Source: an uncultured Bdellovibrionales bacterium
Lineage (GTDB): Bacteria > Bdellovibrionota > FAC87 > UBA2466
NCBI GenBank assembly: GCA_937903155.1
Contig: CALCZU010000132.1
Span: 18,043-82,042, forward strand
DNA length: 64,000 bases
Reading direction: 5' to 3'
The notes beneath the pieces were generated by a model. That model saw nothing but the letters and a program-made list of their open reading frames with translations. It did no database searches and was not told the DNA's origin. A program made the translations under genes and the position numbers. Shown here one piece after another: positions 18,563 to 37,444 of the stretch (positions are counted from its first letter, which is position 1; every line of letters starts with the position of its first letter).

Positions 18563-19534
18563 TTAAGTTGGAACGGTGCCGGGGACGATGATGCCTTTTT
18601 TCTTGAGGCGGTGATTCCAGTAGGCATCGAGGGACATTGCGACGATGATTGCGTAAGCCGATCCCCATAAAATATCTAAGATGTAGTGGTGATTTAAATA
18701 CACGGCCGAAAAACACATCAATAAATAGTAAAGCGTTGTGAAGATTCTAAGCGATCCAAAACGGAACGCCCAATAAACAGAAATCAGTGGATAGGCGATA
18801 TGCAGCGAGGGAATCGCTCCGTGCACATCCGCGCTGCGCCCGTAAAAGTTTGCAAAAACCGGCAAGCCCACAAACTGATCAAAACGCACACAGCCGGCCA
18901 AGTTTGCGGGGACATCTAATCGCGCAGGTCCTAAACCATAAAGCGCCACATACCAAGGCGGCGAAGCCGCATACCAGTAGTAGGTCGAAAATCCGAGCAT
19001 ATTGACCCAAAAAAACGCCCACATGATTTGAGGCGATCGATAAAAAACCGAATGCGGGTGACAGATTTTTGTCCCCTTCCCCGAGAGCCAAAAGCGGTAA
19101 TAGCCTGCGACGATAATGTAAACAGGCACAAAGATGATGTAAGCAATCCCGCAAATAAAATCGAGAAATCCTATCGTATGCTTTTGCCACCACTCATTGG
19201 GAGTTAAAACCCCTTCGAGTGTTTTAATTCCAAAGAAATATTTATCAAACTCATAAGGCTCGCGAACGTGAATGGGTCCCCGAATGAGGTCTGCGTAGTA
19301 GCGTTGAGTATCGTAAATAATCAGCATTAAAAAAAGCGGGAATAGAAAATCAAAAAGGGGACGCGTTTTTTTTCCCCCGTAATAGAGCAGTGTCGGAACA
19401 AGACCCATTAAAATAATCTCGGCCCGGATTCCGCTCGTTTTTGAAGAGATAAGGACGTTGGAGACTTTTCCGTCCAAAAAATAGATGAGACCCCAGTAAG
19501 CAAACATCAAAACAATGGGGAAAATCTTTTTCAC
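18563..19534 (-). CDS. PAP2-superfamily integral membrane protein with sphingomyelin-synthase / AUR1 (IPC synthase)-like motifs
   Basis: 323 aa, polytopic. IPSLHIAYP resembles the SGH box and NHHYILDILWG resembles H-Y-x-x-D-[VI]. These are the SMS/AUR1 D3/D4-like motifs. Confidence 0.45.
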   Translation of the reverse strand: MKKIFPIVLMFAYWGLIYFLDGKVSNVLISSKTSGIRAEIILMGLVPTLLYYGGKKTRPLFDFLFPLFLMLIIYDTQRYYADLIRGPIHVREPYEFDKYFFGIKTLEGVLTPNEWWQKHTIGFLDFICGIAYIIFVPVYIIVAGYYRFWLSGKGTKICHPHSVFYRSPQIMWAFFWVNMLGFSTYYWYAASPPWYVALYGLGPARLDVPANLAGCVRFDQFVGLPVFANFYGRSADVHGAIPSLHIAYPLISVYWAFRFGSLRIFTTLYYLLMCFSAVYLNHHYILDILWGSAYAIIVAMSLDAYWNHRLKKKGIIVPGTVPT

Positions 19535-19540
19535 AATTTT

Positions 19541-20680
19541 TTAGATATAATTTTTTCTTTTGATTTTCTCAATGATGATTTTTTCGGGCATCGTGGGGTC
19601 GCGAGGATCGACCGTAAAGAAAGCTTGCTGCTCACAACGTCTTTTGTTTTTCAAAAGCCAATGAAGGATTTCGGAGAGTCCTTTATTCTTTTTGTCTTTA
19701 AAAAACGGATCGTTTTTCAGCGCATCCGCCGCTTTTTTAAGCGCTCGCGCCTCACCGACATCGGTTTCTTTCACCGGATAGTCGTTGAGATCATACTTTT
19801 TGATATCTTCAGGCAAAACGCCCAAGAAGCGGACTTCGGGAGCGGAGAAATCTGAGTTTCGAATCAAGCTCGCAGCACTTCCGGCTTTCAGCGTTCTAAA
19901 AATATTTTGCATCGTATAGGCGTCCAGATCCCCGAAGAAGTAAATCGGAACATCTAACTCATCTTGGATGAGCTTACACCAACCTCGAACCGCATTACTG
20001 GGAACCCCTTGGGCACCCATTAAAATGCAGTTGTTTCGTTTGCAAAATCCGTTTGAGACGAACGTATTTGCGGTACCTTCGGATTCGACAACTAAGCAGA
20101 AGTCGATTTTTTTCTTCGCCTTTAATTTCAAACTTTGAGGGCGGTTTTTCGGTTGAAACGGGGTCGTTCCAAGAGAACTTAAATCCACAACCGCTTTTCC
20201 ACCATCGGGAAGCGTTTCTGTGACGACCAGCTGGTTCGAATACGTTTGGCCTCCGCGATCATTGGCAAAACAATTTAATTCTTCACGGTAGCACTCAAGC
20301 ATTTCGCAGATGAAATCGATGACAGAGTCACTCTCGGTCTGATCTAAAAAGTCGAGCGGTTTCAAAGCAGGATTATGCTTCACTTCACCTTTCGCGATGT
20401 AGTAAAGCTCACGCTTCGTATTGACCGCACCCGTTTCGAGGTTTCTTAAAAAAATCTCGAGAAGAAAAATCGCACGCGACATTTTTTGGACCGAGCTGAC
20501 ATTGAGTTCCGTGCGGACCATTTTATCGCCTGGGGTCAGGTATCCGACCTTAGGATTATAATTCGAATTATCGAGAGAACATTTGACGGCTTCCATCACC
20601 GGACGCTTCGCATTTTCGAGATCCGTCAAAAGGCGGCTACAAAGATCTTTTGACATTTCTGGGATGGTTTCGTCTCTCAT
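19541..20680 (-). CDS. top6A: DNA topoisomerase VI subunit A (Spo11/Top6A)
   Basis: 379 aa. The catalytic-tyrosine motif TKRELYYIA sits in a winged-helix region. The Toprim region has VVESEGT and the acidic FFGDLDAYTM DxD motif. Size and order, downstream of top6B, are as in archaeal operons. Confidence 0.8.
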   Translation of the reverse strand: MRDETIPEMSKDLCSRLLTDLENAKRPVMEAVKCSLDNSNYNPKVGYLTPGDKMVRTELNVSSVQKMSRAIFLLEIFLRNLETGAVNTKRELYYIAKGEVKHNPALKPLDFLDQTESDSVIDFICEMLECYREELNCFANDRGGQTYSNQLVVTETLPDGGKAVVDLSSLGTTPFQPKNRPQSLKLKAKKKIDFCLVVESEGTANTFVSNGFCKRNNCILMGAQGVPSNAVRGWCKLIQDELDVPIYFFGDLDAYTMQNIFRTLKAGSAASLIRNSDFSAPEVRFLGVLPEDIKKYDLNDYPVKETDVGEARALKKAADALKNDPFFKDKKNKGLSEILHWLLKNKRRCEQQAFFTVDPRDPTMPEKIIIEKIKRKNYI

Positions 20681-20684
20681 GACT

Positions 20685-22472
20685 CTAGTCTACTTTCTCA
20701 ATTTGTTTCTTTTCAGTTTTCTTCTTCGGAGCCGGTTTCGCCTTTTTTTCTTTGATTTCGACGTCAGGCGTTTCCGCTTCGAGTTCCACCGGAGCTTCTT
20801 CTTTCGTCTCGTCTTCGTCTTTTTTGACGACCTGGAGTTTTCCGGACTTCTTCGCTTTTTCAGCGTGGACTTCGGCTTCTTCAAGCTGCTTTTTTGCGAG
20901 ATTAATATCACGGCCCAAAAGCTTCACTAAACCTTCATTCGCCTTTTTCTTACGTGCCGCCGGCGCTTTGGTAATTCGGCAAAGACAGTCGACCAGAATC
21001 GGACAGAATTGCTCGATATGTCTTAACTTCTCTTCTAAATCGTTAGCCTTCGTTTCTTTACGAATATGCCGCGAAAGTCTTTGTCCGGCTTGAATCAATG
21101 TCCGGCGAATTTCTTCGACAAGCTCATCACTCGCATCGACCGTTTCTTTGGAAGCATTTTTAAATTTAATAAACGGCGAAACAAGACTGAGGGCAATCAC
21201 GTAAGGCCCATTCGGAAGACTATCTTTAGGCTGTTGAAGGCCGTAAGCTCTCCAATTCACAGTCTCAATTGCTTTGACCATCGCACAGGCCGATTTATCA
21301 AACTGTAAAGGGACGCGATTTGCAAAACGCAAAACCTGAACCGGAGGATCATTTCCCTCCGAACCATCGCGGACCAAATTCTTCAATCGCGCAATTGCAA
21401 CTTCAACCGCCACCGGTTTGAAATCGCAAATCGTAGGTTTACGAGTCACGACCGAAAAGAAATCCACTTCGCCAAGACGTCGGACACTTTTCGAAAACGC
21501 TTCTTCACCAATAATCATGACTGAACGCGTACTCGGCGCCATGAGTTCTGTTTTGTGAATCGCACCAAAAACTTCTTTGAATTGTAATTCACTTAACTTA
21601 TCAATCGATTCATCCACATATTTTTTAGGAAGTCCGTTTTTAATAAACTCCTGAATCGTATTATCCGTAATGCGCGAAAAGGCTTTCTTCAGCCAAACCT
21701 TTAAAGTCACTCGCCCAAAGAGATGGGAAAAAGCAATAAACTCTCCCAACTTCATCGTGTGAGGATGAGGCTCCGTCGCCTCGGGAATGTCAGGCCCTTT
21801 ATCGGTAACTCTCAGAATTTTCTGCTTGGGCTGATCGAGAAGTTTGTAAGTCAGATTGAGATGCGGATTTACAAGCGCGGTTCCATTCAAATAGGTAAGA
21901 AGACCGCCTTCTCCCTGCAACTGAATTCGTCCGTCAATTTCAAACTCAACGCTCACGCCATGGGGTCTGTCCCAAGTAATCGATTTTTTATCTTTTAATA
22001 AACCTTTATTGTTTTTAATATCGACTTCGACTCGCGCCGAAACCGCTTGCCGCATGCCCTTCGTCTTCGTGATGACGGTCGCTCCCTTTGCCGAAGTCAA
22101 TTGCGCCCACGTCGTCGCCGCCGAAATCCCAATCCCCTGCTGCCCACGCGAACATCTTCCACGCCCAAATTTAGAACTCGCAAGGTACTCACCAAAAACT
22201 TTTGTCACTTCTTCTGCATCGAGTCCAGGACCATTGTCCGAGATCTTAATCCGAATCAAATCCGTATTTTTTAAAGTCCCTGTCCCAATTTTTTCGATGA
22301 CGACATCAATCTCAGGCAGGATTTCGTGGTCTTCACAAGCATCCAAAGAGTTATCAACCGCCTCTTTAAGCGTTGTCAGCACAGCTTTCGTAGGAGACGA
22401 AAACCCCACTTGCTGAAGATTCTTAGAAAAATATTCCGCAGTACTACTAGATGTAATTTTCTGTTTTGCCAC
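20685..22472 (-). CDS. top6B: DNA topoisomerase VI subunit B (GHKL ATPase, Top6B) with lysine-rich C-terminal tail
   Basis: 595 aa. Bergerat-fold boxes EAVDNSLDA (N), ISDNGPGL (G1) and SRGQQGIG (G2) are present. The transducer block VLRFANRVPLQFDKSACAMVKAIETVNWRAYG aligns with Sulfolobus Top6B. The last ~60 aa are K/E-rich. Confidence 0.85.
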   Translation of the reverse strand: MAKQKITSSSTAEYFSKNLQQVGFSSPTKAVLTTLKEAVDNSLDACEDHEILPEIDVVIEKIGTGTLKNTDLIRIKISDNGPGLDAEEVTKVFGEYLASSKFGRGRCSRGQQGIGISAATTWAQLTSAKGATVITKTKGMRQAVSARVEVDIKNNKGLLKDKKSITWDRPHGVSVEFEIDGRIQLQGEGGLLTYLNGTALVNPHLNLTYKLLDQPKQKILRVTDKGPDIPEATEPHPHTMKLGEFIAFSHLFGRVTLKVWLKKAFSRITDNTIQEFIKNGLPKKYVDESIDKLSELQFKEVFGAIHKTELMAPSTRSVMIIGEEAFSKSVRRLGEVDFFSVVTRKPTICDFKPVAVEVAIARLKNLVRDGSEGNDPPVQVLRFANRVPLQFDKSACAMVKAIETVNWRAYGLQQPKDSLPNGPYVIALSLVSPFIKFKNASKETVDASDELVEEIRRTLIQAGQRLSRHIRKETKANDLEEKLRHIEQFCPILVDCLCRITKAPAARKKKANEGLVKLLGRDINLAKKQLEEAEVHAEKAKKSGKLQVVKKDEDETKEEAPVELEAETPDVEIKEKKAKPAPKKKTEKKQIEKVD

Positions 22473-22630
22473 GCTGCAAGAAATCCTTAAGTTGTAACGA
22501 GCTATTTATTTGAATGTGCTCTAACCATTAAATGTACGAGGGAACACGGAAAATGTCCAGACAAAGGAAAAAACCTGCCTGCCCCGCCTCGGAATGGTTA
22601 AAGGAAAAACTATTAGAAACCTTTCAGAAA

Positions 22631-22771
22631 GAAGAGACGTGCGGGTCCTGTCAGCTGCGTCCGATCCCACTGTCTCTTCGCGCGTTCAATCTGGTGCTGC
22701 GAAATGCAGTAGATTGAATAAGCGAAGAGACAGTGGGATCTAACGCAGCTCACAGGACCCGCACTCTTTTC
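22631..22771. repeat. Long nested inverted repeat (~50-bp arms, ~40-nt loop) between gltA 3' end and top6B 5' region
   Basis: The left arm GAAGAGACGTGCGGGTCCTGTCAGCTGCGTCCGATCCCACTGTCTCTTCGC matches the reverse complement of the right arm with 3 to 4 mismatches. Each arm is itself bounded by GAAGAGAC / GTCTCTTC. Confidence 0.6.
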
Positions 22772-22812
22772 CAACAGAAAAGTTTGTGATGGCCCCGTTC
22801 CTTTGAACTTTC

Positions 22813-24114
22813 TTACTTTCCGGTTCGCTGCGCTGCCGGGACGTAGTCGGTTTCGCGCGAGCCGGTGTAGATTTGGCGTGGGCGGCCGATTTTTGAGTCT
22901 GGGGTTTCGACCATTTCTTTCCATTGGGCTATCCAGCCGGGGCAGCGTCCGATGGCGAACATGACGGTGAACATGTTTGTTGGGATTCCGATCGCTCGGT
23001 AGATGATGCCGGAATAGAAGTCGACGTTTGGATAGAGTTTTCTGGAGACGAAGTATTCGTCTTTTAAGGCGACTTCTTCGAGTTCCTTTGCGTATTCGAG
23101 AAGTGGATCGTGGATTCCGAGTTTTGTTAAGATCGTATCGCAGGAGCGTTTGATGATTTTGGCTCGAGGATCGAAGTTTTTGTAGACGCGGTGGCCGAAG
23201 CCCATGAGTCTCGCGCCGCCCTCTTTGTTTTTTACTTTATCGACGAATTTTTTGACGCTATCGCCGGAATCTTTAATTCCTTGGAGCATCTCTACCACTT
23301 CTTGGTTTGCTCCCCCGTGTAATGGGCCCCAGAGTGCGGAAATTCCTGCCGAGACGGAGGCGTATAAGTTTGCGCGACTGCTGCCGACTAATCTTACCGT
23401 CGATGTGGAGCAGTTTTGTTCGTGATCGGCGTGCAGGATTAAAAGAAGATCAAGCGCTTTTGCGACTTCGGGATCGACGTAATATTCTTCAGCGGGGACT
23501 GCGAACATCATTTTTAAGAAGTTCGAGCAGTAGTCTAAGCTATTCGTTGGGTAAACGAACGGTTGGCCGATCGATTTTTTGTACGAGAATGCGGCAATCG
23601 TTGGAATTTTTGCGAGCAATCTGAAAATAGAAAGTTCGACGTCGATGGTGTCGCTTGAGTTGAGCGAGTCTTGATAAAACGTCGAGAGCGTGCTGATGGC
23701 GGACGAAAGCGTTGCCATCGGATGCGCATCTCTTGGGAAGCCGTCGTAAAAACGCTTCATGTCTTCGTGAAGCATGGTGTGACGGGTGAGATTTGTCGAA
23801 AATTTTTCGAGTTCGTGTTGGAGGGGGAGCTTTCCGAAAATGAGAAGATACGCTGTTTCTAAGAACGTTGAATTTTCTGCGAGTTGTTCGATGGGAATTC
23901 CGCGGTAGCGTAAAATTCCTTTTTCGCCATCCAAGAAGGTAATGCCGCTCGTGCAAGCGCCCGTATTCATGTAACCGCTGTCGAGAGTGACGTGGCCTGT
24001 GAGATCTCTCAGCTTTCGGATATCGATGGCGCGTTCGCCTTCGGAGCCCTCATAGATAGGAAGTTCAATTTCTTTTCCATCTAAGATTATTTTTGCCGTC
24101 TTTGCCATAGTCAC
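22813..24114 (-). CDS. gltA: Citrate synthase (type II, hexameric class)
   Basis: 433 aa. LDGKEIELPIYEGSEGERAIDIRKL, the catalytic-His blocks GPLHGGANQ and MGFGHRVYK, and the C-terminal IPTNMFTVMFAIGRCPGWIAQW. Confidence 0.95.
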   Translation of the reverse strand: MTMAKTAKIILDGKEIELPIYEGSEGERAIDIRKLRDLTGHVTLDSGYMNTGACTSGITFLDGEKGILRYRGIPIEQLAENSTFLETAYLLIFGKLPLQHELEKFSTNLTRHTMLHEDMKRFYDGFPRDAHPMATLSSAISTLSTFYQDSLNSSDTIDVELSIFRLLAKIPTIAAFSYKKSIGQPFVYPTNSLDYCSNFLKMMFAVPAEEYYVDPEVAKALDLLLILHADHEQNCSTSTVRLVGSSRANLYASVSAGISALWGPLHGGANQEVVEMLQGIKDSGDSVKKFVDKVKNKEGGARLMGFGHRVYKNFDPRAKIIKRSCDTILTKLGIHDPLLEYAKELEEVALKDEYFVSRKLYPNVDFYSGIIYRAIGIPTNMFTVMFAIGRCPGWIAQWKEMVETPDSKIGRPRQIYTGSRETDYVPAAQRTGK

Positions 24115-25062: not shown

Positions 25063-26289
25063 TTATTTAAGCGAAATCACACGCAGCGTGTTTGTTTGAA
25101 GATTGATTTCACCTGTGGGCGACGTCGAATATTTTTCGTGTCGAATTTCGAATGCTTTTACGAGTTGGCCCGAATCGTAAGTCCGCGTCGAAGAAAACTC
25201 ATGTGTGACGCCAGAGTTTTTCACTTTCCCGCGGAGTCGACTAAACCAAACAGGTTTTCCTAAGACTTCGTCTTCGCGATTCTGCAAAAGAACGCACTCG
25301 CTAAAATTCGGTTTGGGTTTAAAGACCGGAACAATCACGCCCGACGAATCGGAAATGACAGGCGCTACGCCGAGTTTCATTTTGTCGTAAGTTAAATATA
25401 AAACCTCTTCGGATCCTTGAGAACTTCCTTCTTCAATTTTTCGAGTGACTTTGAGGGTGATTGTTTTGTCATTTTGATTTTCAAACTCAAATGTCAGATA
25501 AGCGCGTGCAACATTGTCCTGAATCAGAGGTTCTTCAGTCGTCAACTCAAAGACCACTCGATTGCTCTTGGTCCAACTTAAGGGATTCAGATTCAAGACC
25601 CCCGAATTGAGCCCTGGATAAAAATTGGCGTTCGCGCAATCGAGATCCATAAGATTCAATTCTTCCACTTTGCGTTGATACTCTGCTTGATCCATGTAAT
25701 CGGCATGCCGAGAACTCATGAGTCCAACGTAGATGCGAGACAGAATCGAATTTTTTTGTCCTAACTGAGTCGCATCGTAATAAACAATCTCATGCAGAAT
25801 CAATGCGGCTCGACTGTCGTCAGTCAGAAGACTGTTATCCCAAAGATCTTTATTCACGAGATAAATTCGGTCTTCCGGAACGCGCTTTGTTCTCCGCGCA
25901 GCGAGTTGCTCGATGGTGCAACCGGGCTCTAGAGGTACAAAACCGAAATCGTCTGTACTGGGAATAATGACTTTCTCGGTGAAGGTCACGTTGTTGAAAA
26001 AATCATTCGCTTTGATTCGATAGCGACGCGCTCGGACCGGATCGAACCTCTCGATTCGGGCGAGCAGAATTTCGAGCTTTGAATAAATCGACAGTTCTTT
26101 TCCGCCAATCTCGACGTCGAGACTTCGGAATCTATTTTCAAATAAATCCAAAAGTTCAATCGATTTAACCTGCTGAGAAGAGTCTCGACAAACCACGATA
26201 CCGCCACCGCTCCCGCGGTCATTTCCGGCAAAAGTTGAACCTGCGAAAACTCCGAACCAGAATAGAATTCCAATAAATCGACTTGTCAT
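25063..26289 (-). CDS. Hypothetical secreted protein
   Basis: 408 aa with a signal peptide (MTSRFIGILFWFGVFAGSTFA). No motif recognised. It overlaps the upstream gene by 4 bp. Confidence 0.4.
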   Translation of the reverse strand: MTSRFIGILFWFGVFAGSTFAGNDRGSGGGIVVCRDSSQQVKSIELLDLFENRFRSLDVEIGGKELSIYSKLEILLARIERFDPVRARRYRIKANDFFNNVTFTEKVIIPSTDDFGFVPLEPGCTIEQLAARRTKRVPEDRIYLVNKDLWDNSLLTDDSRAALILHEIVYYDATQLGQKNSILSRIYVGLMSSRHADYMDQAEYQRKVEELNLMDLDCANANFYPGLNSGVLNLNPLSWTKSNRVVFELTTEEPLIQDNVARAYLTFEFENQNDKTITLKVTRKIEEGSSQGSEEVLYLTYDKMKLGVAPVISDSSGVIVPVFKPKPNFSECVLLQNREDEVLGKPVWFSRLRGKVKNSGVTHEFSSTRTYDSGQLVKAFEIRHEKYSTSPTGEINLQTNTLRVISLK

Positions 26290-27107
26290 CTTTCGGTCCC
26301 TCTTAAATCAGAGACGGGAATGAGTTGTACATTTAAGTTGTACACTTCGGTCCGTTCTCCAGTTTCTAGAACTCTTGCCAAGTATCTTCGAAAGTTTTGT
26401 ATGAGCTCTTTTGCGATTTGAATCTTTTTAGGATCAATCGCCATCGTGATTGAAGTTATATCAGAATCCTTTACGGAGACTTCGTCAAGCGCCGAGATCG
26501 CCTGTTCTAAGCTTTGTCGATGCGATTCTCTTAGCGCAGCGCAAGGAGTATTACTCGTCGTGGCAACCCCATTTTGTGCTGGACGTAACTTTTTACCTTC
26601 GCTCACAATAAAACCCATTCGGATCAGTCTATCGACGGCTTCTTTCACTTCGCGAACCGTAATCTTAAGTCGAGACGCCATCCATTTCGGATCATTTTTA
26701 AAATCATCGGTTTCGATCAGACTGAGAAGCGCAAAATGATACCAGTCCGCAACGATAGCGAACTGATCGAACGAAATCTGTTTGTAGTCCGAATGGTGCT
26801 TTCCTAAATTTTCTCCTTCTTTAATCACGGTTGCGGAATCTTCTTGCTCGACAATCAAAGAGAGAAACGCTTTTTTCTCTTCTTCGGAAAATCCCAATCT
26901 ATCGGCGATACGGATCCCCATTTTTGTGGTGAGGGTTCGTTTGCGCGCAATGATTTCAGAAAGCGGACCGGCCGGAACTTGCAAATTACGAGCGAATGCG
27001 CGCAGCGAATAGGAATGATTGCGATTACGGCGTGTTTGAAACTCTTTGGTGAGCCACGAGATGGGATCTTTTTCCCGTCGATGATTTTCGTTTTCGTGTT
27101 GGGACAT
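26286..27107 (-). CDS. HTH-containing protein, resembles TIGR02147 paralogous family
   Basis: 273 aa. The N-terminal block HSYSLRAFARNLQVPAGPLSEIIARKR is a helix-turn-helix-like segment. Family recall is from memory and not verified. Confidence 0.4.
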   Translation of the reverse strand: MSQHENENHRREKDPISWLTKEFQTRRNRNHSYSLRAFARNLQVPAGPLSEIIARKRTLTTKMGIRIADRLGFSEEEKKAFLSLIVEQEDSATVIKEGENLGKHHSDYKQISFDQFAIVADWYHFALLSLIETDDFKNDPKWMASRLKITVREVKEAVDRLIRMGFIVSEGKKLRPAQNGVATTSNTPCAALRESHRQSLEQAISALDEVSVKDSDITSITMAIDPKKIQIAKELIQNFRRYLARVLETGERTEVYNLNVQLIPVSDLRGTER

Positions 27108-28038: not shown

Positions 28039-28112
28039 GGGTGTTTAGCTCAGTTGGTTAGAGCACCTCGCTTACACCGAGGGGGTCCACGGTTCGAGTC
28101 CGTGAATACCCA
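28039..28112 (+). tRNA. tRNA-Val (anticodon TAC)
   Basis: Manual cloverleaf: acceptor GGGTGTT/AATACCC, D-arm GCTC..GAGC, anticodon stem CCTCG/CGAGG with loop CTTACAC, T-arm CACGG-TTCGAGT-CCGTG, discriminator A. CCA is not encoded. Confidence 0.9.
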
Positions 28113-29269: not shown

Positions 29270-32200
29270 CTATTTTTTAAACGGAGCTAAGAGAGGTTCG
29301 TAGTCATTGGATTCGCTGAAACGGGTGTCTGGGAGTGCGATTCCTTTTAGGTTTGCGTAGAGTTCGATGACTCGGACGATTTGATTTGCGCTGTGGGGTG
29401 ACTTTGCATCGATTGCGTTTGTGAGAAGTTCTTTAGAGGGAGGAGCGTTGCCGAAAATGAGTTGCATTCGTTCATCCCACTTTGTTTGTTGTTCTGGAGA
29501 AAGGGCGGCTCTCATTCCTGAGGTCACGAGTGCAAAATCATCCTGGGCTTTGAATACGGTTTTGATTTCTTGAAGAAGATTCCTGTATCTTCCGTAAGTT
29601 TCTGGCGTAATCCAATTCTTTCGGAGAAACGCTTTATAAAGGATATCGGCTCTCTTTTCTCCGAGTTTTTTCCCACCGACACCGAGATCAAAACCTTTGA
29701 GCTGAGCGTAGTAGTCGAGCATTTCTATGATCTGAATCGAGGTCGGTTGGTCGGCGACAGAATTTGATTTAAAAATGTCTTTTATCTTGAGATCCCACTG
29801 GTCGCCGACAGAATCATCGAGCGAGTTCCTTAGTTCCGCTAAATAGTTTGAAAAATCATCTGATTTGAAAGTTTTTTGTAACCGCTCTAAAAATGGAATG
29901 TATTCAGGGAATAGATTTCGCTTGATAGGAGACGCTGCCTTCCTCGGAGCTTCTACTACGGGCACCGCAGGGAGGTCTGGTTCTAAATCTGGTTTGAAGG
30001 ACTTTAGGAAAGTCGTAAATTTTTTAGCATCTTTAAAATCCTCTTTCGAAAGCGGGGAACCTCTCAATTGGGAATAAAATTCCATTAGAGTTAGAATGCG
30101 ATTCGCATGATTTGCATTCTGATGAAAAAGAGTCGTTGTGAGTAAAGCGGGTGGCGGCCCGCTGGCAAAAATACGATCAATCTCTTGATCGAGTTTAACG
30201 AGATCTTCTTTTTGAAGATAACTTTTCATGCCTGCAATCACCTTGCTAAACTGATTACTCGCAGTGAAAGTTTTTTGTAGAGTCTCTAAAAAAGGACGGT
30301 ATTCGTGGAAGTTTTCGCTGGTAACGACTTGTTCTACGATCCCAAAAGAGTGAAAAAGCTTGAGGAATGTTTTTGGTTTTTCCAGATCTCCCGCAGTAAC
30401 GGAAAGGCCTTTTAATTTTGCATAAAGAAGGGCCAGCTTTACAAGTTTATTAGCCTTCGGAGTCGACCGATCTCTAACCATTCCTGTGAAGAAACTCTTC
30501 GAGGGTTTCTTTTTTTCAAAAATCTCAAGGACGCCCTCATCCCATTCCTCGTGCGTTGAAAGATCCAGATCCTTTTTAAAGGCCGTAGTTACCTTTAAAA
30601 AATTGTCACCTGGTTCAAACGTTTCTCCTAATTGTTCTAGAAATGGAATATACGCGGAAAAATTTTCAGAATGGACGGGCGTTGAGTCAGCAACTCCATA
30701 CTGATCCAAGAATTCATCCAGCTTATTCGGTTTTCTGAGCTCAGATGGGCTCAGTCGAAGTCCCTTCAATCGTGCGACTTCTGCAAGAAATCTTAAGACT
30801 TTATCGGCATTCGCGTCGGATTTGCTATAGATCGTGGTATTTAGAATAAAATTCGAAGGACCCGAAGGGCCAAAAATTTCTTTTGTTTTTAAATAATAAA
30901 CTATTTGCTCGGAAGGAGAAAGCTGGTCTCTGAAATGGGAAATCACTTTCGAGAAGTCGACTTGCGCTTTCAGATTATCCGATAGTTTTTTGATCAAAGG
31001 CAAAAAGGTATCAAAATTGGATTTTGTGACAATCGCTTCTTTCGACCCCAAAGTTTTTAGGAATTTATTGTACTCTTTTGTTTGATGTAGATTGTCCGGC
31101 GAGACTTTGACCCCGGCAAGCTTTCCGTAAAGCTCGAGGACTTTCAATATCCTGTCTGCATGGTTCAATGACTTCCTCTGGAGTAGAGTCGTGAAAAGGA
31201 CAGGTAGTGGGCCGTTTTCGCCGAAAATTTCTTTAATTCCCTTCTCCCAGTTTTCATGTAGTCCGGGACCAATGTTTTTTTTGAGGGCCTCGAGAAATCT
31301 ACTAAAATCTACGGATGCTTTAAACAGAGTCTGAAGTTTTTTGAAAAACTTTAGATAACCTTCAATATTATCCGGATTCGCATATCCGCCTTCTTTCGAA
31401 GGCGCGTTCCAAAAATCGATCCGCCCTGCCTCACGAATCAATGCGATATAGTCTTCTAGAGCAATCACAGGATGATGATCTTCTTTTTTCCGTTTAGACT
31501 TCCCTGCAGTGCCTTTTCGTTCGATATCGTCCATACGCTTTGCAAGCGCTTCGTGATCCAGAGATTGAGCTAAGTAAATTTCCACATCTCGCTTGCCAGG
31601 CGCGGTTCTGACTACGCGCCCAAATCTCTGAGTGAGCGAGAAAGGATTGGGATCGTCCCGCAGATCGACGAGACACGAGGCTATCGGAAGATCGACGGCT
31701 TCATTCAGTCTATCGACAGAAACTAAAACATGAATTTCACCTTTATTATACCGTTCTAAAATCTCTGTGACTGGAGTGACAACGAGTTGCCCGTCTTTGT
31801 TTTCGACATAGCCTTCATAATCCGAAGTGTAGACAGCGACTTTTCTACCGTGGGGAGTGAGTTGTCTTGAGAGATATTCGGTCAACCTCAGCGCTTCTTT
31901 TTGGGAGTTGACTGAAAACAGACTTGGACGGCTCAAAAGAGAATCGCGAGTTTGCTCGAATAAAGAAGCATAGTGCTGGTCGAGAAGCTCTGCTCTTTGT
32001 CCGCGGTCGACTGGAGTATAAATCGGATCTCCTTCTTTCAGTGCGAAAACCAAAGGTCGCACTTTCTCAAAGCCTACTAAGTCGCCATTTGCAAAGGCCG
32101 CCTCAAGTTGCTTCATCACGTCGCCCGGAGAGCGATCCGCAGCTCCCCGCTTCTCTAACCATGCTTCAGGCGTATCGAGGTAAGTGTAAAACCCTCGGCC

Positions 32201-33346
32201 TCCCGCCATTCTTTGAACACGGCTATCCGGGGTGGCCGTGATCAAAAGGGCCGAAGCTTCGGGATTCTCTTTTAAAGTTTCATCAAAAATTTTTCCGATT
32301 TGTAATGCGCCTGCATGGTGAGCTTCATCGTAGATCCAGTATTTTAAAATGGATCTTAAGTGTTGGACATTTTTGGGATCTGGCAAAAATTCAGGTTCTT
32401 CATTTTCGTTCGTAACCTTTTCTCCTTTAATTCGCGAACGTAATGAGGATGCAGTGGTGACAAGAATCACGGGCTCGTTCCCGCTCTCAACAAGTGCTTC
32501 AAGCTCTTCAAAAGTCTTTGCATCGGCGTTGCGTTTTCCACCGTCTCCCCATTCAACCAGCTTGATTCCGATAGGAGGTTCTCCCTCAATTCCACTTTGA
32601 ATTTTTTTTACCTCTTTTGTCAGTTGGGAGACGGTATTTGTTTGATCGCTTAGGACGATATATAAACCCTTCCCTTTTGTCTTAAGACGGTCTCGTAAAA
32701 GGGCACGAACGATTTCGGATTTTCCCGTGCCCGTTGGGGATACCGCGAGAAAAACCTGGTCCTCTGCATTTTTATCTTTATCAAATTTTTTAAGAAGCGT
32801 TTGTCCGAGGTCAATCACTTCATTTTGAATCTCGCGGTGAACGAGTGCAGGTTCCCCCAAAGCTTTTCGCTCTGCCTGATGAGGTCCATTGGGATCCACG
32901 AGAAAAGGATAGAGTGGATGACCTAAAAATGTATTTCGAATCAGCCCCGTTCGATTAGGGAATTTACTCCAATCAAACTCGTGAGGAATTTCTAACGTTC
33001 TAAGTTTCGCATCGATGTTGACCATGCGAGGAGTAGTAACTCCCTCTACAAATCGAATCTCAACCGCAAATCCCTCTGGCGAAGTACTTCTCAAATGCCC
33101 TTCAGAAGTTCGCTCCCACCTCGGAGTTTTTTTCGATCCCACAATGGCTCTTCCACCTAATTCCGGAAGCAGGTTTTCAAGAAACCGAACTTCATCGGCA
33201 CTCATCGCCAGCCGCTTTTTTTGAAGCGCAAACTCCGCAAAAACTTTCGCACAAGGGGTAGAAAAAAGCGGCTGGCGCGCGTTGCCCACAGAACAGGCAA
33301 AAAGAAGCCCTAAAATGAAAACAAAATTTAAAATGGGGTGAGACAC
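29270..33346 (-). CDS. Large SF2 helicase (ResIII/DEAH-like core) with signal-peptide-like leader and ~6 C-terminal ~125-aa tandem repeats
   Basis: 1358 aa with GTG start at 33346. Walker A is AVSPTGTGKSEIV and the DEAH box is IYDEAHHAG. Motif III ITATP and motif VI QRFGRVVR are also present. The C-terminal half has repeated units matching [FY]IPFLE-x-L-x-TF...FSKV...W...IFG...ANxxL...LYAKLKG. An alternative start is at MSADEVRF, about 46 codons in. Confidence 0.7.
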   Translation of the reverse strand: MSHPILNFVFILGLLFACSVGNARQPLFSTPCAKVFAEFALQKKRLAMSADEVRFLENLLPELGGRAIVGSKKTPRWERTSEGHLRSTSPEGFAVEIRFVEGVTTPRMVNIDAKLRTLEIPHEFDWSKFPNRTGLIRNTFLGHPLYPFLVDPNGPHQAERKALGEPALVHREIQNEVIDLGQTLLKKFDKDKNAEDQVFLAVSPTGTGKSEIVRALLRDRLKTKGKGLYIVLSDQTNTVSQLTKEVKKIQSGIEGEPPIGIKLVEWGDGGKRNADAKTFEELEALVESGNEPVILVTTASSLRSRIKGEKVTNENEEPEFLPDPKNVQHLRSILKYWIYDEAHHAGALQIGKIFDETLKENPEASALLITATPDSRVQRMAGGRGFYTYLDTPEAWLEKRGAADRSPGDVMKQLEAAFANGDLVGFEKVRPLVFALKEGDPIYTPVDRGQRAELLDQHYASLFEQTRDSLLSRPSLFSVNSQKEALRLTEYLSRQLTPHGRKVAVYTSDYEGYVENKDGQLVVTPVTEILERYNKGEIHVLVSVDRLNEAVDLPIASCLVDLRDDPNPFSLTQRFGRVVRTAPGKRDVEIYLAQSLDHEALAKRMDDIERKGTAGKSKRKKEDHHPVIALEDYIALIREAGRIDFWNAPSKEGGYANPDNIEGYLKFFKKLQTLFKASVDFSRFLEALKKNIGPGLHENWEKGIKEIFGENGPLPVLFTTLLQRKSLNHADRILKVLELYGKLAGVKVSPDNLHQTKEYNKFLKTLGSKEAIVTKSNFDTFLPLIKKLSDNLKAQVDFSKVISHFRDQLSPSEQIVYYLKTKEIFGPSGPSNFILNTTIYSKSDANADKVLRFLAEVARLKGLRLSPSELRKPNKLDEFLDQYGVADSTPVHSENFSAYIPFLEQLGETFEPGDNFLKVTTAFKKDLDLSTHEEWDEGVLEIFEKKKPSKSFFTGMVRDRSTPKANKLVKLALLYAKLKGLSVTAGDLEKPKTFLKLFHSFGIVEQVVTSENFHEYRPFLETLQKTFTASNQFSKVIAGMKSYLQKEDLVKLDQEIDRIFASGPPPALLTTTLFHQNANHANRILTLMEFYSQLRGSPLSKEDFKDAKKFTTFLKSFKPDLEPDLPAVPVVEAPRKAASPIKRNLFPEYIPFLERLQKTFKSDDFSNYLAELRNSLDDSVGDQWDLKIKDIFKSNSVADQPTSIQIIEMLDYYAQLKGFDLGVGGKKLGEKRADILYKAFLRKNWITPETYGRYRNLLQEIKTVFKAQDDFALVTSGMRAALSPEQQTKWDERMQLIFGNAPPSKELLTNAIDAKSPHSANQIVRVIELYANLKGIALPDTRFSESNDYEPLLAPFKK

Positions 33347-33511: not shown

Positions 33512-33937
33512 TTACGGTTGGAATGCGTTTTTTCTGGCGGGAAGATTTCTGACGTCGGGAAGGTCTTTGGAAAGAGAAATCGCTTTGGCACTTGCCCATT
33601 GCTTAGGGGCAGGAAGGTTTTTCATCCCCGCATCCATACTCGGAGGGGCCGTGCCCATGACTCCTTGAGGAATTTCAAAACCGGGAGCTGTAGGAAAGTG
33701 CATTCCTAAATTCTGATCGGGACCGGCAATATTTCTTCCTGGAAAGGAGTTCGCTTTAACTACGTGAGGATCCATCGGAGGAGGCAACTCTTTACCGACT
33801 TGGGGAAGAGGAATCTGTGGCAAAGCTGGAGACGAACTAATCTCTCGAATGCTTTTCTTAGAGAAGTGTTTTTTTACTTCAAGCCCCGTGACTACGACGA
33901 GCAAAATCACGACGGTGTATTTGATATTCGCGCTCAT
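33512..33937 (-). CDS. Small membrane-anchored proline-rich protein
   Basis: 141 aa with an N-terminal TM (VVILLVVVTGL) and a Pro-rich C-terminal half. It overlaps the upstream pilin-like gene by 1 bp, which suggests co-translation. Confidence 0.3.
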   Translation of the reverse strand: MSANIKYTVVILLVVVTGLEVKKHFSKKSIREISSSPALPQIPLPQVGKELPPPMDPHVVKANSFPGRNIAGPDQNLGMHFPTAPGFEIPQGVMGTAPPSMDAGMKNLPAPKQWASAKAISLSKDLPDVRNLPARKNAFQP

Positions 33938-35157
33938 TAATAGGTCTTCTTGTGAAACGTGATTTTAGCTTTGACGTAAGGATGCACTAAAAGACTGACT
34001 CGATAGGGGTCCGTGTAAGGCACGTTAATTGGCTTCACCGGGTTCGGGCAGTACTGATGGGTGTAATTGAATACATAAGCCCATTGGTAGGGCTGCAAGA
34101 CCGTCATCTGTCGACCATCGCCGAGGGCAAACCAGTTATAATATGGCCACGCAATTTGGCCCGTTAACCCAGTCCAGGTGTTATTGCTCAGAGAAGGTTG
34201 CTCCAAAAACATATCGGCCGTAAACGTCGTCACGTAATCGTAATACGTTTTGTGCTGCATATTAAATGAGATCGTACAGCCCAATTCTCCACCGCAAATA
34301 TCTTTAATGTCGATGTTCTCCACGCAACCCCAAGTACTTAAGTCCGGCGGGATAATGTCGTAGCTGACAGGGTACTCAGAAGTTTCCGAGAAACACCCCG
34401 CGACTTCTCTTGTTTGTGAATCGGCTAAAAGACCGACAAAGAAATCTTTCGAGTAAACTTTTCGATTCATGAGATCGGATTTTGAGGAAGCTTCCAAATG
34501 CACCTTCGCAACGTACTTATCTAAATTTTGATTGTTGCGAGTGTCTTTTCCCGCGTTAGACAAACTATCGATTTGAAGTCGGTTGATTCGAAGCGTTCCA
34601 CTCGCATATTCCCCTAACGCGGCGACGGTCGAAACTCCTGTCGTCACTACGGTTGAAGACGATTGACCACTGACTGCCGTCGGAGAACGGTTATCCATCG
34701 TGCCTGAACCTTGGCTCGCACCGCCTGAACCGTCTGCGGAAGAAGGCACAGAATCCCCACTCCCCACGGTGCTCGAACGATTTTCTACGGAAAGGGTTGT
34801 ATTTTTAAGAGCGTCTGGAATCACTTCCTGAAGCGTTGTCACAGCCATCGCCCCTGGTAACTGAATCGCGCTGATGGCAAGTGGGAGTTTATTCAATTCG
34901 ACTTTTAAAGGGAGGCCATTGTTCGCCATGCGCAATGTCTGACCGCAGGTCGTAGGATTTGATAAAACGAGCTGCATTCCCATCACTAAATTTTGAAAAT
35001 CTGATTTTGAATCAATTGCAGTTTGTGACTTAAACATCGAACCTAAAAGCTGAGAATGATAAACCCCGACCAGTGCAATGAGCGAAGATGCAAGTAACAC
35101 TTCTACTAACGTAAATCCTTTTTGATTTTTGCGAATCTTCATTTTGATTTTACCCAT
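33937..35157 (-). CDS. Prepilin-type N-terminal cleavage/methylation domain protein (large type IV pilin-like / pseudopilin-like)
   Basis: The N-terminus ...KNQKG|FTLVEVLLASSLIALVGV is the class-III leader peptide motif G-F-T-L-[IV]-E. 406 aa is larger than major pilins. The likely true start is MKIRKNQKG at 35142. Confidence 0.6.
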   Translation of the reverse strand: MGKIKMKIRKNQKGFTLVEVLLASSLIALVGVYHSQLLGSMFKSQTAIDSKSDFQNLVMGMQLVLSNPTTCGQTLRMANNGLPLKVELNKLPLAISAIQLPGAMAVTTLQEVIPDALKNTTLSVENRSSTVGSGDSVPSSADGSGGASQGSGTMDNRSPTAVSGQSSSTVVTTGVSTVAALGEYASGTLRINRLQIDSLSNAGKDTRNNQNLDKYVAKVHLEASSKSDLMNRKVYSKDFFVGLLADSQTREVAGCFSETSEYPVSYDIIPPDLSTWGCVENIDIKDICGGELGCTISFNMQHKTYYDYVTTFTADMFLEQPSLSNNTWTGLTGQIAWPYYNWFALGDGRQMTVLQPYQWAYVFNYTHQYCPNPVKPINVPYTDPYRVSLLVHPYVKAKITFHKKTY

Positions 35158-35326: not shown

Positions 35327-37444
35327 TTACCAGCGCGGACGGGGAATCGGTGGTGGTTTAGTCGGTACCGACGGCAAAGAAATGGGCGGCTTCGGCAACG
35401 GTGGCAAGATACTGCCTGGATTCGGAATAGGAATCGACGGAACCCAGGAACGAATGCGCGCTTCCAAGTTCGCGGCCTCTCGCGAAAGTTGATTAAAGAG
35501 ATCTGTTAAACGACTCAAATCTTTCGACAGGTTTCCATAATCGGTGACAAAGTTGTTGATCTGAGGCCCCAACAGCAAGAGTCTATTTGCTAGAACGTCG
35601 ATAGAGTTTTTTAGTCGCGCTTCTTCTGCCCCGAGACTTCCAAGCCGCGTGCGAAGGTTTTGCAAAACCTGACTTGCACCATCGAAAGCGACGGCCGCTT
35701 GATTCGACACGACTTCTGCAGCATCGAGCTTTGCCTTCAGCGAGATAAGCGTTTCTGTGAGTCCTTGCGTCTTCGAACGAATACTTGCAAGGGATGTCTT
35801 CGTTGCTGCCTGGAGCAGATCCATCGCACCGATTCGAAATGAAGAACTCTGATTTTTGTACCAATCATTGAGTGCTGTCGCCGCGTCTTCAAGACGTCCC
35901 CAGCTTTGCTGGTGGAGGATATCTACGGTCACATTGACGGCCATGCGATTGAGATCGAACTCAAACTGAGTCACTGTCGCTTTTCCTTCATTTCCTTGCG
36001 CGAGGTACACAAGCCGTTGTTCTAAAACTTGAGCGGCTCTCGTTCCTTTTAAGTCAATGATGGGATTTCCTTCTTGATAACGGCTCATCATCTCACTCGA
36101 GTTGACTCCGATAGAGGTCATCATCTTTGCGGTGTTGAGTTGTCCCGCGATACTGGCCGCGACAACCGCGTAGTCAAACCCGCCGAGAAGTTTTTGCACG
36201 TTTCTCGATGCATTTCCTAGGAGTCTTTGAGAGGCGATTTTAAAAAGTCTCTCGGTTTGACCTTGAACTTCTGCTCTCGAATCGAAATTTTGAATTCGAT
36301 CCCGGAAGCTTGTCGCACGAGTGCTTCCCAATCCACCTTTCAACCCAAAGGCCAAGTGACTCGACGGGAGCGTCGCACTCATACCAGAAGGAATTTTTAA
36401 ATTGGGCAAGAACATCGTAGGAATATTTGTCATCCAACTGCTTTTGGTTTTGTAAATGCAGTCGACGCCTTCTGCTTGAACAGCGAACTGGACTCCGATA
36501 TCTAAAGGACAAGCTTCTCCTAAGATGGAACTTAAGGCACAAGTTGCCGCATTTTCGAGATCCTGCTGTCCACTTTGGAGGATAAAGGCGACGACATCGT
36601 TGAACTCAAGCAGCAGTTGGTCTTGAGCTTCTCGCAAGGATTGCTCAACACTTTTTCCGGCAGTCGCAATTCCTAAAGCAATGTGGTGGGCGCCTGTTTC
36701 AACACTCGCCCAGTCGACAAAGCGTTCCGAAGCGTAATAGCTGTGGGCAGCGCCGGATTGAGCGTAAAATCGATCGCGTGCAGTTCGGTACTTCGTTTCG
36801 TGTTGTAATTGCTGAAAAGCCGCAGAACTAAAAAGAAACTCGACGGGATTCACTCGTGGGATGGCGAGCGTTCCACTCAACCAGCTCTCAATTTTCTTAG
36901 AGTCGAGCGTGATTCCGTTTCCTAAATTCACTTCGCCGAAGAAAGTTCCTGCTTTGAAATTGTAAGAGAGTTTAGCCTCGGTATTTAGCGAATAGGCGAG
37001 AATTTTTTGGTTCAGGTTAAAATCAAGAAGGGCTTGATACTGTTTTCCATACTCCAGAAGTTGATCCGAAAGAGCGGCTCTCTGTGCGATCAGACTGTTG
37101 ACGGCAGCTTTACTGGCATTCAGCCTTTCTTGGAGAGGGGCAGCGGCCGATTGCGCCTGGGCAACTTGCTGGTTTACCGCAACGACAAGACCCTGAACAT
37201 TATTTAAGTTCGCCGTTTCATTTGCGATTTGTTGATTAATCGAATTGAATGCGGCACGGGCATTCGCAAGGTCCCTATCGACCACGCCGATTCGAGCGCT
37301 CACAGCGTCCATCTCTCTTTTGACTCCATCTCTTCGGCCGGCAACATTGCTTAATTGGTTTTTAAGATCGGTGAGCGGATCTGCAGTCAGGGTCAGTGCA
37401 AATAAAAAAAGTCCTAATAGGACCTTCCAGTTTCTACCATTCAT
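35327..37444 (-). CDS. Secreted coiled-coil protein with proline-rich C-terminus
   Basis: About 706 aa from MNGRNWKVLLGLFLFALTLTA, which is a signal peptide. Long heptad-like stretches rich in A/Q/L/N sit in the N-terminal third. The C-terminus is PIPNPGSILPPLPKPPISLPSVPTKPPPIPRPRW. Confidence 0.45.
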   Translation of the reverse strand: MNGRNWKVLLGLFLFALTLTADPLTDLKNQLSNVAGRRDGVKREMDAVSARIGVVDRDLANARAAFNSINQQIANETANLNNVQGLVVAVNQQVAQAQSAAAPLQERLNASKAAVNSLIAQRAALSDQLLEYGKQYQALLDFNLNQKILAYSLNTEAKLSYNFKAGTFFGEVNLGNGITLDSKKIESWLSGTLAIPRVNPVEFLFSSAAFQQLQHETKYRTARDRFYAQSGAAHSYYASERFVDWASVETGAHHIALGIATAGKSVEQSLREAQDQLLLEFNDVVAFILQSGQQDLENAATCALSSILGEACPLDIGVQFAVQAEGVDCIYKTKSSWMTNIPTMFLPNLKIPSGMSATLPSSHLAFGLKGGLGSTRATSFRDRIQNFDSRAEVQGQTERLFKIASQRLLGNASRNVQKLLGGFDYAVVAASIAGQLNTAKMMTSIGVNSSEMMSRYQEGNPIIDLKGTRAAQVLEQRLVYLAQGNEGKATVTQFEFDLNRMAVNVTVDILHQQSWGRLEDAATALNDWYKNQSSSFRIGAMDLLQAATKTSLASIRSKTQGLTETLISLKAKLDAAEVVSNQAAVAFDGASQVLQNLRTRLGSLGAEEARLKNSIDVLANRLLLLGPQINNFVTDYGNLSKDLSRLTDLFNQLSREAANLEARIRSWVPSIPIPNPGSILPPLPKPPISLPSVPTKPPPIPRPRW

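Follow-up and report, generated by a model that had tools for sequence, protein, structure and literature searches.

An apparently intact archaeal-type topoisomerase VI operon in a Bdellovibrio-like bacterium, and the KGRR-loop position and C-terminal tail of its B subunit

Introduction

Two adjoining genes in a 64-kb stretch of DNA from an uncultured relative of Bdellovibrio (hereafter the window) raise the question of whether a predatory bacterium carries a complete archaeal-type DNA topoisomerase VI (Topo VI), by what route the enzyme was acquired, and what it would do there. The original prediction, made from the DNA itself, held that the pair encodes both subunits of such an enzyme, with the B gene preceding the A gene. 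At the level of sequence this is confirmed, and the locus codes for an apparently intact archaeal-type Topo VI in a Bdellovibrio-like predatory bacterium. Furthermore, we regard it as very probable that this predicted, catalytically competent Topo VI is an old, vertically inherited operon of the Bdellovibrionota, most likely acting as the decatenase and relaxase of the lineage in place of topo IV.

Topo VI is already documented in the Bdellovibrio lineage, and its presence here is not new. The enzyme of B. bacteriovorus has been assigned to Bd2864/Bd2865 in a FEMS review (PMC11318664), the only mention of these two genes that we found in the literature, and Pseudobdellovibrionaceae are among the 17 Topo VI-bearing bacterial families of Allen & Maxwell 2024 (PMC11302465). 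The Topo VI of strain HD100 comes from the same phylum, apparently belongs to the same family and likewise has two subunits; HD100 is cultured, whereas the window derives from an uncultured relative.

Results and discussion

Both subunits of a two-gene topoisomerase VI

The two minus-strand genes adjoin with 4 bp between them and B ahead of A, as originally described (Table 1).

Table 1. Features of the top6B-top6A locus. Positions refer to the 64-kb window.
Feature	Position	Strand	Description
gltA	22813..24114		Upstream of top6B; Citrate_synt 472 bits
Inverted repeat (hairpin)	22639..22764		Near-perfect, 59-nt arms, 8-nt loop; in the gltA-top6B spacer
Sigma-70-like promoter candidate	22531..22559	-	TGGACA-17-TACATT; about 59 nt upstream of the top6B GTG, downstream of the hairpin; consensus match only
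top6B, DNA topoisomerase VI subunit B	20685..22472	-	595 aa, GTG start; GHKL ATPase residues ~30-225, H2TH ~228-310, transducer 313-482, stalk helix to ~542
KGRR-loop position	21909..21920	-	Top6B residues 185-188 (L-Q-G-E), aligned with the M. mazei KGRR(186-189) T-segment sensor loop
C-terminal tail of Top6B	20685..20849	-	Residues ~542-595, predicted disordered and bipolar: acidic stretch DEDETKEEAPVELEAETPDVE, then lysine-rich end IKEKKAKPAPKKKTEKKQIEKVD
B-A junction	20681..20684	-	top6B TAG stop, then 4 nt (agtc), then top6A ATG
top6A, DNA topoisomerase VI subunit A	19541..20680	-	379 aa, ATG start; winged-helix/5Y-CAP with catalytic Tyr94 (RELYY); Toprim with E199, D251-x-D253
PAP2-family membrane protein gene	18563..19534	-	Starts 6 nt past the top6A stop; resembles phosphoinositol dihydroceramide synthase

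All four Pfam domain models scored well over their cut-offs. Top6B matched Topo-VIb_trans (PF09239) at 144 bits (cut-off 24) over the full profile positions 1-159, and HATPase_c (PF02518) at 40.6 bits (cut-off 26.4), while Top6A matched TOP6A-Spo11_Toprim (PF21180) at 136.5 bits (cut-off 24.1) and TP6A_N (PF04406) at 50.1 bits (cut-off 26). Against the NCBIfam equivalog NF003218, Top6B reached 501.4 bits for a cut-off of 274, and against the older TIGR01052 model it lay just under the cut-off (372.5 versus 380.7 bits). Top6A scored 420 bits against the equivalog NF003335, 4 short of its cut-off of 424, with residues 11-378 giving full-length coverage.

Comparison with solved structures places both proteins beside archaeal enzymes. 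The best PDB match of Top6B is the M. mazei subunit (2q2e_B; E=8e-80, 272 bits, residues 5-495), and the M. mazei enzyme (2q2e; newer entries 9o0g, 9o7o and 9o8p) has the GHKL, H2TH and transducer regions and the switch lysine in common with it, together with a WKxY-type motif that reads WRAY in the window protein. By sequence alignment alone, the H2TH region matches its M. mazei and S. shibatae counterparts with few gaps. Top6A is closest to the archaeal M. jannaschii subunit (1d3y_A; E=8e-36), which scores 127 bits (S. shibatae 78, M. mazei 67) in a comparison that spans residues 68-353 only. One cluster of bacterial topo VI-A has been placed near the Methanococcales (PMC11302465), in line with this best match. 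Together, the profile, structural, catalytic-residue and synteny evidence backs a two-subunit archaeal-type Topo VI.

Catalytic residues and expected activity

The motifs quoted in the original prediction were all found, and the catalytic tyrosine and the Toprim DxD are kept on alignment. More specifically, Top6B carries EAVDNSLDA at residue 37, ISDNGPGL at 77 and SRGQQGIG at 108, and Top6A carries RELYY at residue 90 and GDLDAY at 250. In Top6B, E37 and N41 align with E38, the general-base glutamate, and N42, the Mg-binding asparagine, of S. shibatae, and both the DxGxG box (D79/G81/G83) and the GxxGxG box (G110/G113/G115) are present. The transducer alignment with Sulfolobus Top6B proposed earlier holds as well: the S. 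shibatae match reaches residue 526, and the switch lysine K442 (NASKE) falls on K427 (SAGKE).

Across 79 clade sequences, Top6B residues E37, N41, D79/G81/G83, G110-G115 and K442 are invariant, as are R90, E91, Y93, Y94, E199, D251 and D253 of Top6A across 70. In 1d3y_A, the counterpart of Y94 is chain residue 35, taken here as native Tyr103 of M. jannaschii provided that the construct begins at residue 69; the Toprim acidic residues of that chain are matched by E199 and D251/D253. The catalytic tyrosine, Toprim glutamate and DxD are shared with the M. jannaschii subunit.

From homology, the active enzyme would be an A2B2 assembly of two Top6A and two Top6B chains. The Top6B GHKL domains would dimerise on ATP and so capture a T-segment, and each Top6A Tyr94, together with Mg2+ held by Toprim residues E199/D251/D253, would cut the G-segment. 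Passage of the T-segment through the cut G-segment would result in decatenation and relaxation. We infer this enzymatic activity from the sequences of the two subunits.

Lineage, inheritance and origin

Relatives of the window Top6B occur in at least 184 species-level genomes, and the best 80 of them, at 65-88% identity, almost all bear a Bdellovibrionota, Oligoflexia or Bacteriovoracaceae label. The closest relative (88%) is from the Pseudobdellovibrionaceae, and orthologs at loci labelled Bdellovibrio sp. are 68-77% identical. The B-then-A order, likened at the outset to that of archaeal operons, holds here and in relatives, with top6A after top6B in 76 of the 77 informative related loci. 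In the roughly 29 closest loci, which come from independent assemblies, the order gltA-top6B-top6A is also kept. The paired genes and the gltA synteny point to a vertically kept chromosomal operon and not to a mobile Topo VIII, and the clade-wide operon with its near-universal B-A adjacency favours an old trait, maintained by vertical descent, over a sporadic one. The view that Topo VI is only sporadically reported in bacteria was therefore an understatement, given the published B. bacteriovorus and Pseudobdellovibrionaceae records and the related genomes counted here. That the pair is stably integrated was also proposed, and stands on the conserved synteny; the hairpin that had been cited for it is no evidence for integration.

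Among Top6B representatives at 50% identity, clade members are 54-78% identical to the window protein, and the nearest full-length outsiders are 36-39% identical. Judged from these identity gaps, together with published trees (PMC11302465), the Bdellovibrionota Top6B is an isolated branch, less than 40% identical to any other Top6B.

Two other origins would remove the operon from vertical descent. Type IIB enzymes are known on plasmids (PMC11302465) and a large palindromic element lies just upstream of top6B, as might be expected of a Topo VIII or Mini-A-like enzyme on an integrated plasmid or prophage. Topo VIII shares the type IIB chemistry, with a GHKL ATPase and a Spo11-like cleavage domain, but its two parts are fused into one polypeptide, encoded by plasmids that are free or integrated (PMC11302465), whereas the window genes are separate and chromosomal. 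They are flanked by housekeeping genes (gltA and proC among them), the gltA synteny is conserved, and a GC content of 0.448 at the operon, against 0.42-0.48 across the window, gives no compositional anomaly. The full-length alignment to archaeal Top6B, H2TH region included, and the 501-bit match to the Topo VI equivalog also speak against a mobile element. A tblastn search of 72,556 plasmids gave three Top6B genes on haloarchaeal megaplasmids (33-35% identity), a weak match of 61 bits and nothing else. With no close plasmid homolog among them, we rejected a Topo VIII or plasmid origin and give a mobile-element source hardly any probability; the earlier distinction from fused Topo VIII is borne out by the two reading frames, their context and this search.

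Archaeal contamination or a chimeric contig has to be weighed too, the source apparently being a contig of a metagenome-assembled genome. Against this, the gltA-top6B-top6A arrangement recurs in the roughly 29 independent assemblies, and one of the 76 loci with the B-A pair lies on the 2.98-Mb contig CAVZSV010000004.1 and another in a record not labelled as metagenome-assembled. In the closest relative, gltA (92% identical) sits on the same contig as top6B, and cultured B. bacteriovorus has Topo VI (PMC11318664). The conserved synteny refutes contamination or chimerism, which we consider extremely unlikely, and vertical inheritance within the Bdellovibrionota remains the preferred reading.

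A probable stand-in for topo IV

The probable functional analogue of this Topo VI is topo IV (ParC/ParE), which is dedicated to decatenation and to the relaxation of positive supercoils. Topo IV is a type IIA enzyme, with a cleavage-domain architecture unrelated to that of type IIB Topo VI; type IIA breaks are staggered by 4 nt, compared with 2 nt for Topo VI, and type IIA enzymes have more dimer interfaces (PMC11302465). We infer that Topo VI most likely replaces topo IV as the decatenase and relaxase of the lineage because B. bacteriovorus is published without ParC: it has gyrase and is missing from the seven that carry ParC as well (Allen & Maxwell 2024, PMC11302465). The same paper cites unpublished data in which M. 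mazei topo VI complements E. coli parE(ts). The FEMS review (PMC11318664), however, lists 'Top IV (Bd0005)' in B. bacteriovorus, in conflict with the GyrA-box classification in PMC11302465, so the premise that topo IV is missing rests on one paper. No type IIA domain was found in open reading frames of at least 600 aa in the 64-kb window, which is too small to show the gyrase or topo IV of the genome.

The KGRR-loop position and the C-terminal tail of Top6B

The KGRR loop of M. mazei Top6B is a sensor of the T-segment, and its replacement by AAA or EEE abolishes strand passage (PMC5922973). At the aligned position, where M. mazei has KGRR186-189, the window protein reads LQGE, and 79 of 79 clade members have L-(Q/N)-G-(E/D). 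Lysine or arginine occurs in these four columns in none of the 79 sequences, and aspartate or glutamate in every one; a conserved arginine, R182, lies three residues upstream of LQGE. The loop falls at the same position in the phmmer and the profile alignment to 2q2e_B, with moderate posterior support. Most other Top6B representatives are basic at the loop, and some lineages are non-basic (for example xEQGPx). As read from these alignments, the M. mazei-type basic KGRR loop is lost from the Top6B of the clade.

Other elements described as DNA-sensing in M. mazei Topo VI (Wendorff & Berger 2018) appear to be retained in part. The WKxY-type motif corresponds to W407-R408-A409-Y410 (WRAY), which keeps the tryptophan, a basic residue and the tyrosine. 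Among the stalk residues, N406 stands at the position of K399 and Q464 at that of R457, with R/K465 adjoining, and K401 is kept as R408. Since KGRR mutants lose strand passage in M. mazei, an enzyme naturally without a basic loop may differ from the archaeal model.

The second distinctive element is the C-terminal tail of Top6B. The lysine- and glutamate-rich extension noted in the original prediction is real and lies outside the known domains, past the end of the NCBIfam Top6B profile at residue 542 and of the S. shibatae alignment at 526. No Pfam domain was found past residue 482, and the M. mazei alignment ends at 495-497. Residues 521-595 contain 19 lysines and 15 glutamates per 75. Per-column identity in the tail is only about 0.10-0.13 against 78 relatives, and a net-negative first half followed by a net-positive second half is found in 27 of 28 close-clade sequences. 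Basic C-terminal tails are the rule in the close clade and are seen in further Top6B lineages, and to that extent the extension is not unique to the window protein.

An AF2 model of Top6B assigned residues 544-595 a pLDDT below 50 and no secondary structure; built from a 26-sequence alignment, it is poor overall (mean pLDDT 61.7, pTM 0.39) and lends weak support to disorder only. Where M. mazei Top6B ends in an Ig-like domain, the window protein has its predicted disordered acidic/basic tail. The Ig-like fold is absent from the window Top6B, in which the tail is low in complexity, unconserved and unstructured in the model. In PMC11302465 the Ig-like domain is reported only in gyrase-bearing archaea, and the bacterial topo VI-B proteins modelled in that paper lack it, in agreement with the window protein. 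The tail, which would leave the stalk beside the DNA gate, may add or regulate DNA binding.

A literature search for a lysine-rich Top6B tail returned nothing relevant, and PMC11318664 and PMC11302465 are both silent on the tail and on the KGRR-loop change. Both the charge pattern of the tail (~50 aa) and the loop replacement appear to be undescribed.

These features could mean that a real Topo VI homolog has diverged in function, with substrate sensing or regulation shifted, for instance to a decatenase tuned to the multi-chromosome predatory filament or to a nucleoid-associated role, and is not a plain stand-in for topo IV. The clade-wide exchange of basic for acidic residues at the KGRR position, the stalk substitutions at N406 and Q464 (next to the retained R408), a tail conserved in charge pattern and not in sequence, and the distance of the clade from all other Top6B (below 40% identity) would fit such a change. 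Yet the ATPase and cleavage residues are all invariant, which makes ordinary strand passage the simplest reading, non-basic loops and basic tails occur in other Top6B lineages as well, and the loop alignment is only moderately confident. We judge a diverged function improbable and retain a strand-passing Topo VI in the place of topo IV.

A more elaborate proposal, which we put forward as speculative and rather unlikely, is that the clade has rewired DNA sensing in Top6B. Besides losing KGRR, the clade would have kept the tail under selection on its charge pattern only, with the basic end tethering or sensing DNA and the acidic segment acting as an intramolecular DNA mimic or autoinhibitor. Together, these changes would adapt the sole decatenase to resolving the many chromosomes of the predatory filament before synchronous septation. 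Cultured Bdellovibrio is available for testing the function of loop and tail. Should bacterial Topo VI be studied further as a replacement for topo IV or as a model for drug or herbicide targets, the clade supplies a naturally 'KGRR-less' enzyme.

Flanking elements of the operon

The spacer between gltA and top6B measures 340 nt in the window; in relatives it is about 7-90 nt where both genes directly adjoin. The segment at 22620-22790 (171 nt), which contains the hairpin, has a folding energy of -111 kcal/mol (z = -16). The hairpin has no second copy in the window, no Rfam match and no counterpart in the 80 related loci, and two scans of metagenome contigs with the arm sequence were empty. 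With no further copy in the window, the 80 loci or the metagenome contigs, a repeated MITE-type element was rejected. The hairpin is a window-specific insertion, uninformative on stable integration. It is separate from the topoisomerase and probably represents a palindromic element that was inserted, the gltA terminator, or both. Around the promoter candidate downstream of it, sigma-70-like sites are fewer than in shuffles of the same region.

On the other side of the operon, the PAP2-like protein scored 40.6 bits against PF14378 and 185 bits against NF052609, under the cut-off of 480. Its gene may be co-transcribed with top6A in the window, but the linkage to top6A is not conserved: the 80 related loci yielded no homolog at E<1e-10. 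At the B-A junction itself, many relatives have an overlap of -4 or -1 in contrast to the 4-nt gap seen here, and these overlaps point to translational coupling of top6B and top6A.

Identity of the top6B and top6A genes

Two minus-strand open reading frames encode the B and A subunits of a topoisomerase VI (Topo VI). Both lie exactly where the original prediction had placed them, and the 4-nt gap that it gave separates the TAG stop of top6B from the ATG of top6A. All of the motifs that it named were found, namely EAVDNSLDA (37), ISDNGPGL (77) and SRGQQGIG (108) in subunit B and RELYY (90) and GDLDAY (250) in subunit A.

Features of the window discussed in the text
Feature	Coordinates	Strand	Details
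PAP2_3 membrane protein	18563-19534	-	
top6A	19541-20680	-	379 aa, ATG start
top6B	20685-22472	-	595 aa, GTG start
Stable fold	22620-22790		171 nt, -111 kcal/mol, z = -16
Inverted repeat	22639-22764		near-perfect, 59-nt arms, 8-nt loop
Citrate synthase gene (gltA)	22813-24114		upstream of top6B, 472 bits
408-aa protein	25063-26289	-	matches no Pfam or NCBIfam family
DUF4423 protein	26286-27107	-	163 bits
tRNA-Val	28039-28112		
1358-aa protein	29270-33346	-	ResIII, DEAD, Helicase_C
406-aa protein	33937-35157	-	N-terminal prepilin-type methylation motif
744-aa protein	35327-37561	-	no Pfam domain

Top6B matched the Pfam models Topo-VIb_trans (144 bits) and HATPase_c (40.6 bits), and Top6A matched TOP6A-Spo11_Toprim (136.5 bits) and TP6A_N (50.1 bits); these are the families by which the pair had been proposed to be recognizable, and all four matches are well above the gathering scores. 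Against NCBIfam, Top6B scored 501 bits with NF003218, 'DNA topoisomerase VI subunit B' (cut-off 274), and Top6A 420 bits with NF003335, 'subunit A', over its full length and 4 bits under the cut-off of 424. Among PDB sequences, the window Top6B matched its counterparts from M. mazei (2q2e_B, over residues 5-495 at E=8e-80) and S. shibatae (2zbk_B, over residues 2-526), and the best match to Top6A was M. jannaschii Top6A (1d3y_A, E=8e-36). The observation is thus confirmed and its interpretation as Topo VI supported.

The alternative of a Topo VIII, against which the separate A and B genes had already been cited, was excluded on that ground together with an alignable H2TH region and the lack of a close plasmid homologue. 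A tblastn search of 72,556 plasmids returned only three haloarchaeal megaplasmid Top6B genes (33-35% identity) and one 61-bit match.

Conservation of the operon

Scanning one genome per GTDB species yielded 184 relatives. The best 80 of these share 65-88% identity, and nearly all are labelled Bdellovibrionota, Pseudobdellovibrionaceae (to which NCBI assigns the genus Bdellovibrio), Bacteriovoracaceae or Oligoflexia. The predicted B-then-A order is kept in 76 of the 77 loci with enough downstream sequence. The sole exception, locus L077, has a small membrane-protein gene (2780-3603) after top6B, so that top6A is elsewhere or missing in that MAG. Overlaps of 4 nt or 1 nt between top6B and top6A are common among the related loci and suggest translational coupling. 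The pair is a vertically kept chromosomal operon, of unremarkable GC content and flanked by housekeeping genes; gltA lies upstream of top6B in the closest loci, about 29 in number, immediately adjoining it in most.

Top6B was searched exhaustively against 1.84 billion cluster representatives, of which 1999 matched at E<=1e-3. Members of the Bdellovibrionota clade are 54-78% identical to the window protein, and the next full-length representatives reach 36-39% at most, a gap that marks the clade as an isolated Top6B branch. Eight representatives (P0136, P0145, P0146, P0159, P0160, P0188, P0198 and P0226) are 1000-1570 aa long with the Top6B-like region in the C-terminal half, and may be eukaryotic proteins or fusions.

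Catalytic residues and proposed role

In the alignments to the PDB sequences, E37 and N41 of the window Top6B pair with E38 and N42 of the S. shibatae protein and the switch lysine K442 with K427; Top6B also has both glycine boxes. The catalytic tyrosine and the DxD motif of Top6A, on which the assignment had been made to depend, are retained: Y94 pairs with residue 35 in the 1d3y chain, which a construct beginning at residue 69 would make native Tyr103, and E199 and D251-x-D253 pair with the Toprim acidic residues. These residues are invariant among 79 Top6B and 70 Top6A sequences from related loci. By homology, the window enzyme would be an A2B2 type IIB topoisomerase with ATP-dependent strand passage.

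Topo VI has been reported in this lineage before. A FEMS review on chromosome biology reports it for B. bacteriovorus as Bd2864 and names Bd2865 next to it (PMC11318664), and Pseudobdellovibrionaceae (B. bacteriovorus) is among 17 bacterial families bearing it (Allen & Maxwell 2024, PMC11302465). In the latter study, bacterial topo VI-A forms two clusters within the archaeal clade, one near Methanococcales, and the position of B. bacteriovorus topo VI-B is termed 'anomalous'; the Methanococcales structure as best match to the window Top6A and the isolated Top6B clade fit these placements. Seven species with Topo VI also have ParC (Supplementary Figure 6, PMC11302465). B. bacteriovorus is not one of them, so in the published picture it has gyrase and Topo VI but lacks topo IV. 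At odds with this, PMC11318664 lists 'Top IV (Bd0005)', possibly a GyrA under a wrong annotation. Unpublished work mentioned in PMC11302465 has M. mazei topo VI complementing a parE(ts) mutant of E. coli. Drawing on this literature, the cellular role is most likely that of the lineage's decatenase and relaxase, replacing topo IV. The 64-kb window, a small fraction of the genome, contains no type IIA topoisomerase genes.

Lineage-specific features of subunit B

Judged from the NCBIfam profile and PDB alignments, the canonical part of Top6B extends to about residue 540. Residues ~543-595 comprise an acidic stretch and then a lysine-rich end. The tail proposed earlier is therefore real and lies beyond canonical Top6B, although K-rich tails are not confined to the window protein: K/A/P-rich tails also occur in unrelated representatives such as P0148, P0254 and P0262. 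Within the close clade (L001-L029 and the window), tails measured after position 550 span 19-111 residues (median 58), and in 27 of 28 the net charge is negative in the first half and positive in the second. In more distant Bdellovibrionota the ends are mostly short and acidic; 16 of 50 carry a tail of at least 30 residues, bipolar in 12 of the 16. Since the charge pattern is kept while per-column identity to relatives drops to about 0.1, the tail appears to be under compositional selection. It is probably disordered, with pLDDT below 50 in an AF2 model that is poor as a whole. We found no description of this lysine-rich tail in the literature.

A second difference concerns the basic loop KGRR186-189 of M. 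mazei Top6B, which senses the T-segment or DNA crossing and whose mutation abolishes strand passage (Wendorff & Berger 2018, PMC5922973). Pairwise and profile alignments agree, with moderate posterior support only, in placing L185-Q-G-E188 of the window protein at this position. Across the 79 clade sequences these columns hold K/R in none and D/E in all; the position is basic in most other Top6B representatives and in S. shibatae (KAKSR). The M. mazei WKxY motif is retained as WRAY, whereas K399 corresponds to N406 and R457 to Q464, with R/K465 adjoining. The absent basic loop is a genuine lineage-specific difference, as far as the moderately supported loop alignment indicates, and it is speculation that the basic tail end compensates for it. 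The window enzyme belongs to a kind already published, with the bipolar tail and the absent loop as small, apparently undescribed variations that are open to biochemical testing.

The gltA-top6B spacer and neighboring genes

The spacer between gltA and top6B measures 340 nt, compared with roughly 7-90 nt in relatives with both genes directly adjacent, and contains the hairpin; a promoter-like site lies between hairpin and top6B. No second copy of the hairpin occurs in the window, and none was found in the 80 related loci, in the metagenome_contigs collection or, as a family match, in Rfam. Its uniqueness and the short spacers of relatives point to a local insertion. Either a palindromic element that was inserted or a terminator of unusual size, perhaps serving gltA, could account for it. 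The original prediction had counted it, with the placement downstream of gltA, as a hint of stable integration; the hairpin provides no evidence for or against.

The PAP2_3 gene starts 6 nt past the top6A stop, a linkage not kept in relatives. Its product, possibly a sphingolipid head-group transferase, resembles phosphoinositol dihydroceramide synthase (NF052609, 185 bits, under the cut-off of 480). The genes for the DUF4423 and 408-aa proteins overlap by 4 nt. The 744-aa protein, with weak coiled-coil-like matches to SMC models only, is encoded next to the 406-aa protein. The 1358-aa protein, a possible helicase or nuclease of defence type, is encoded next to tRNA-Val and shows a weak match to a dnd-associated restriction enzyme domain.
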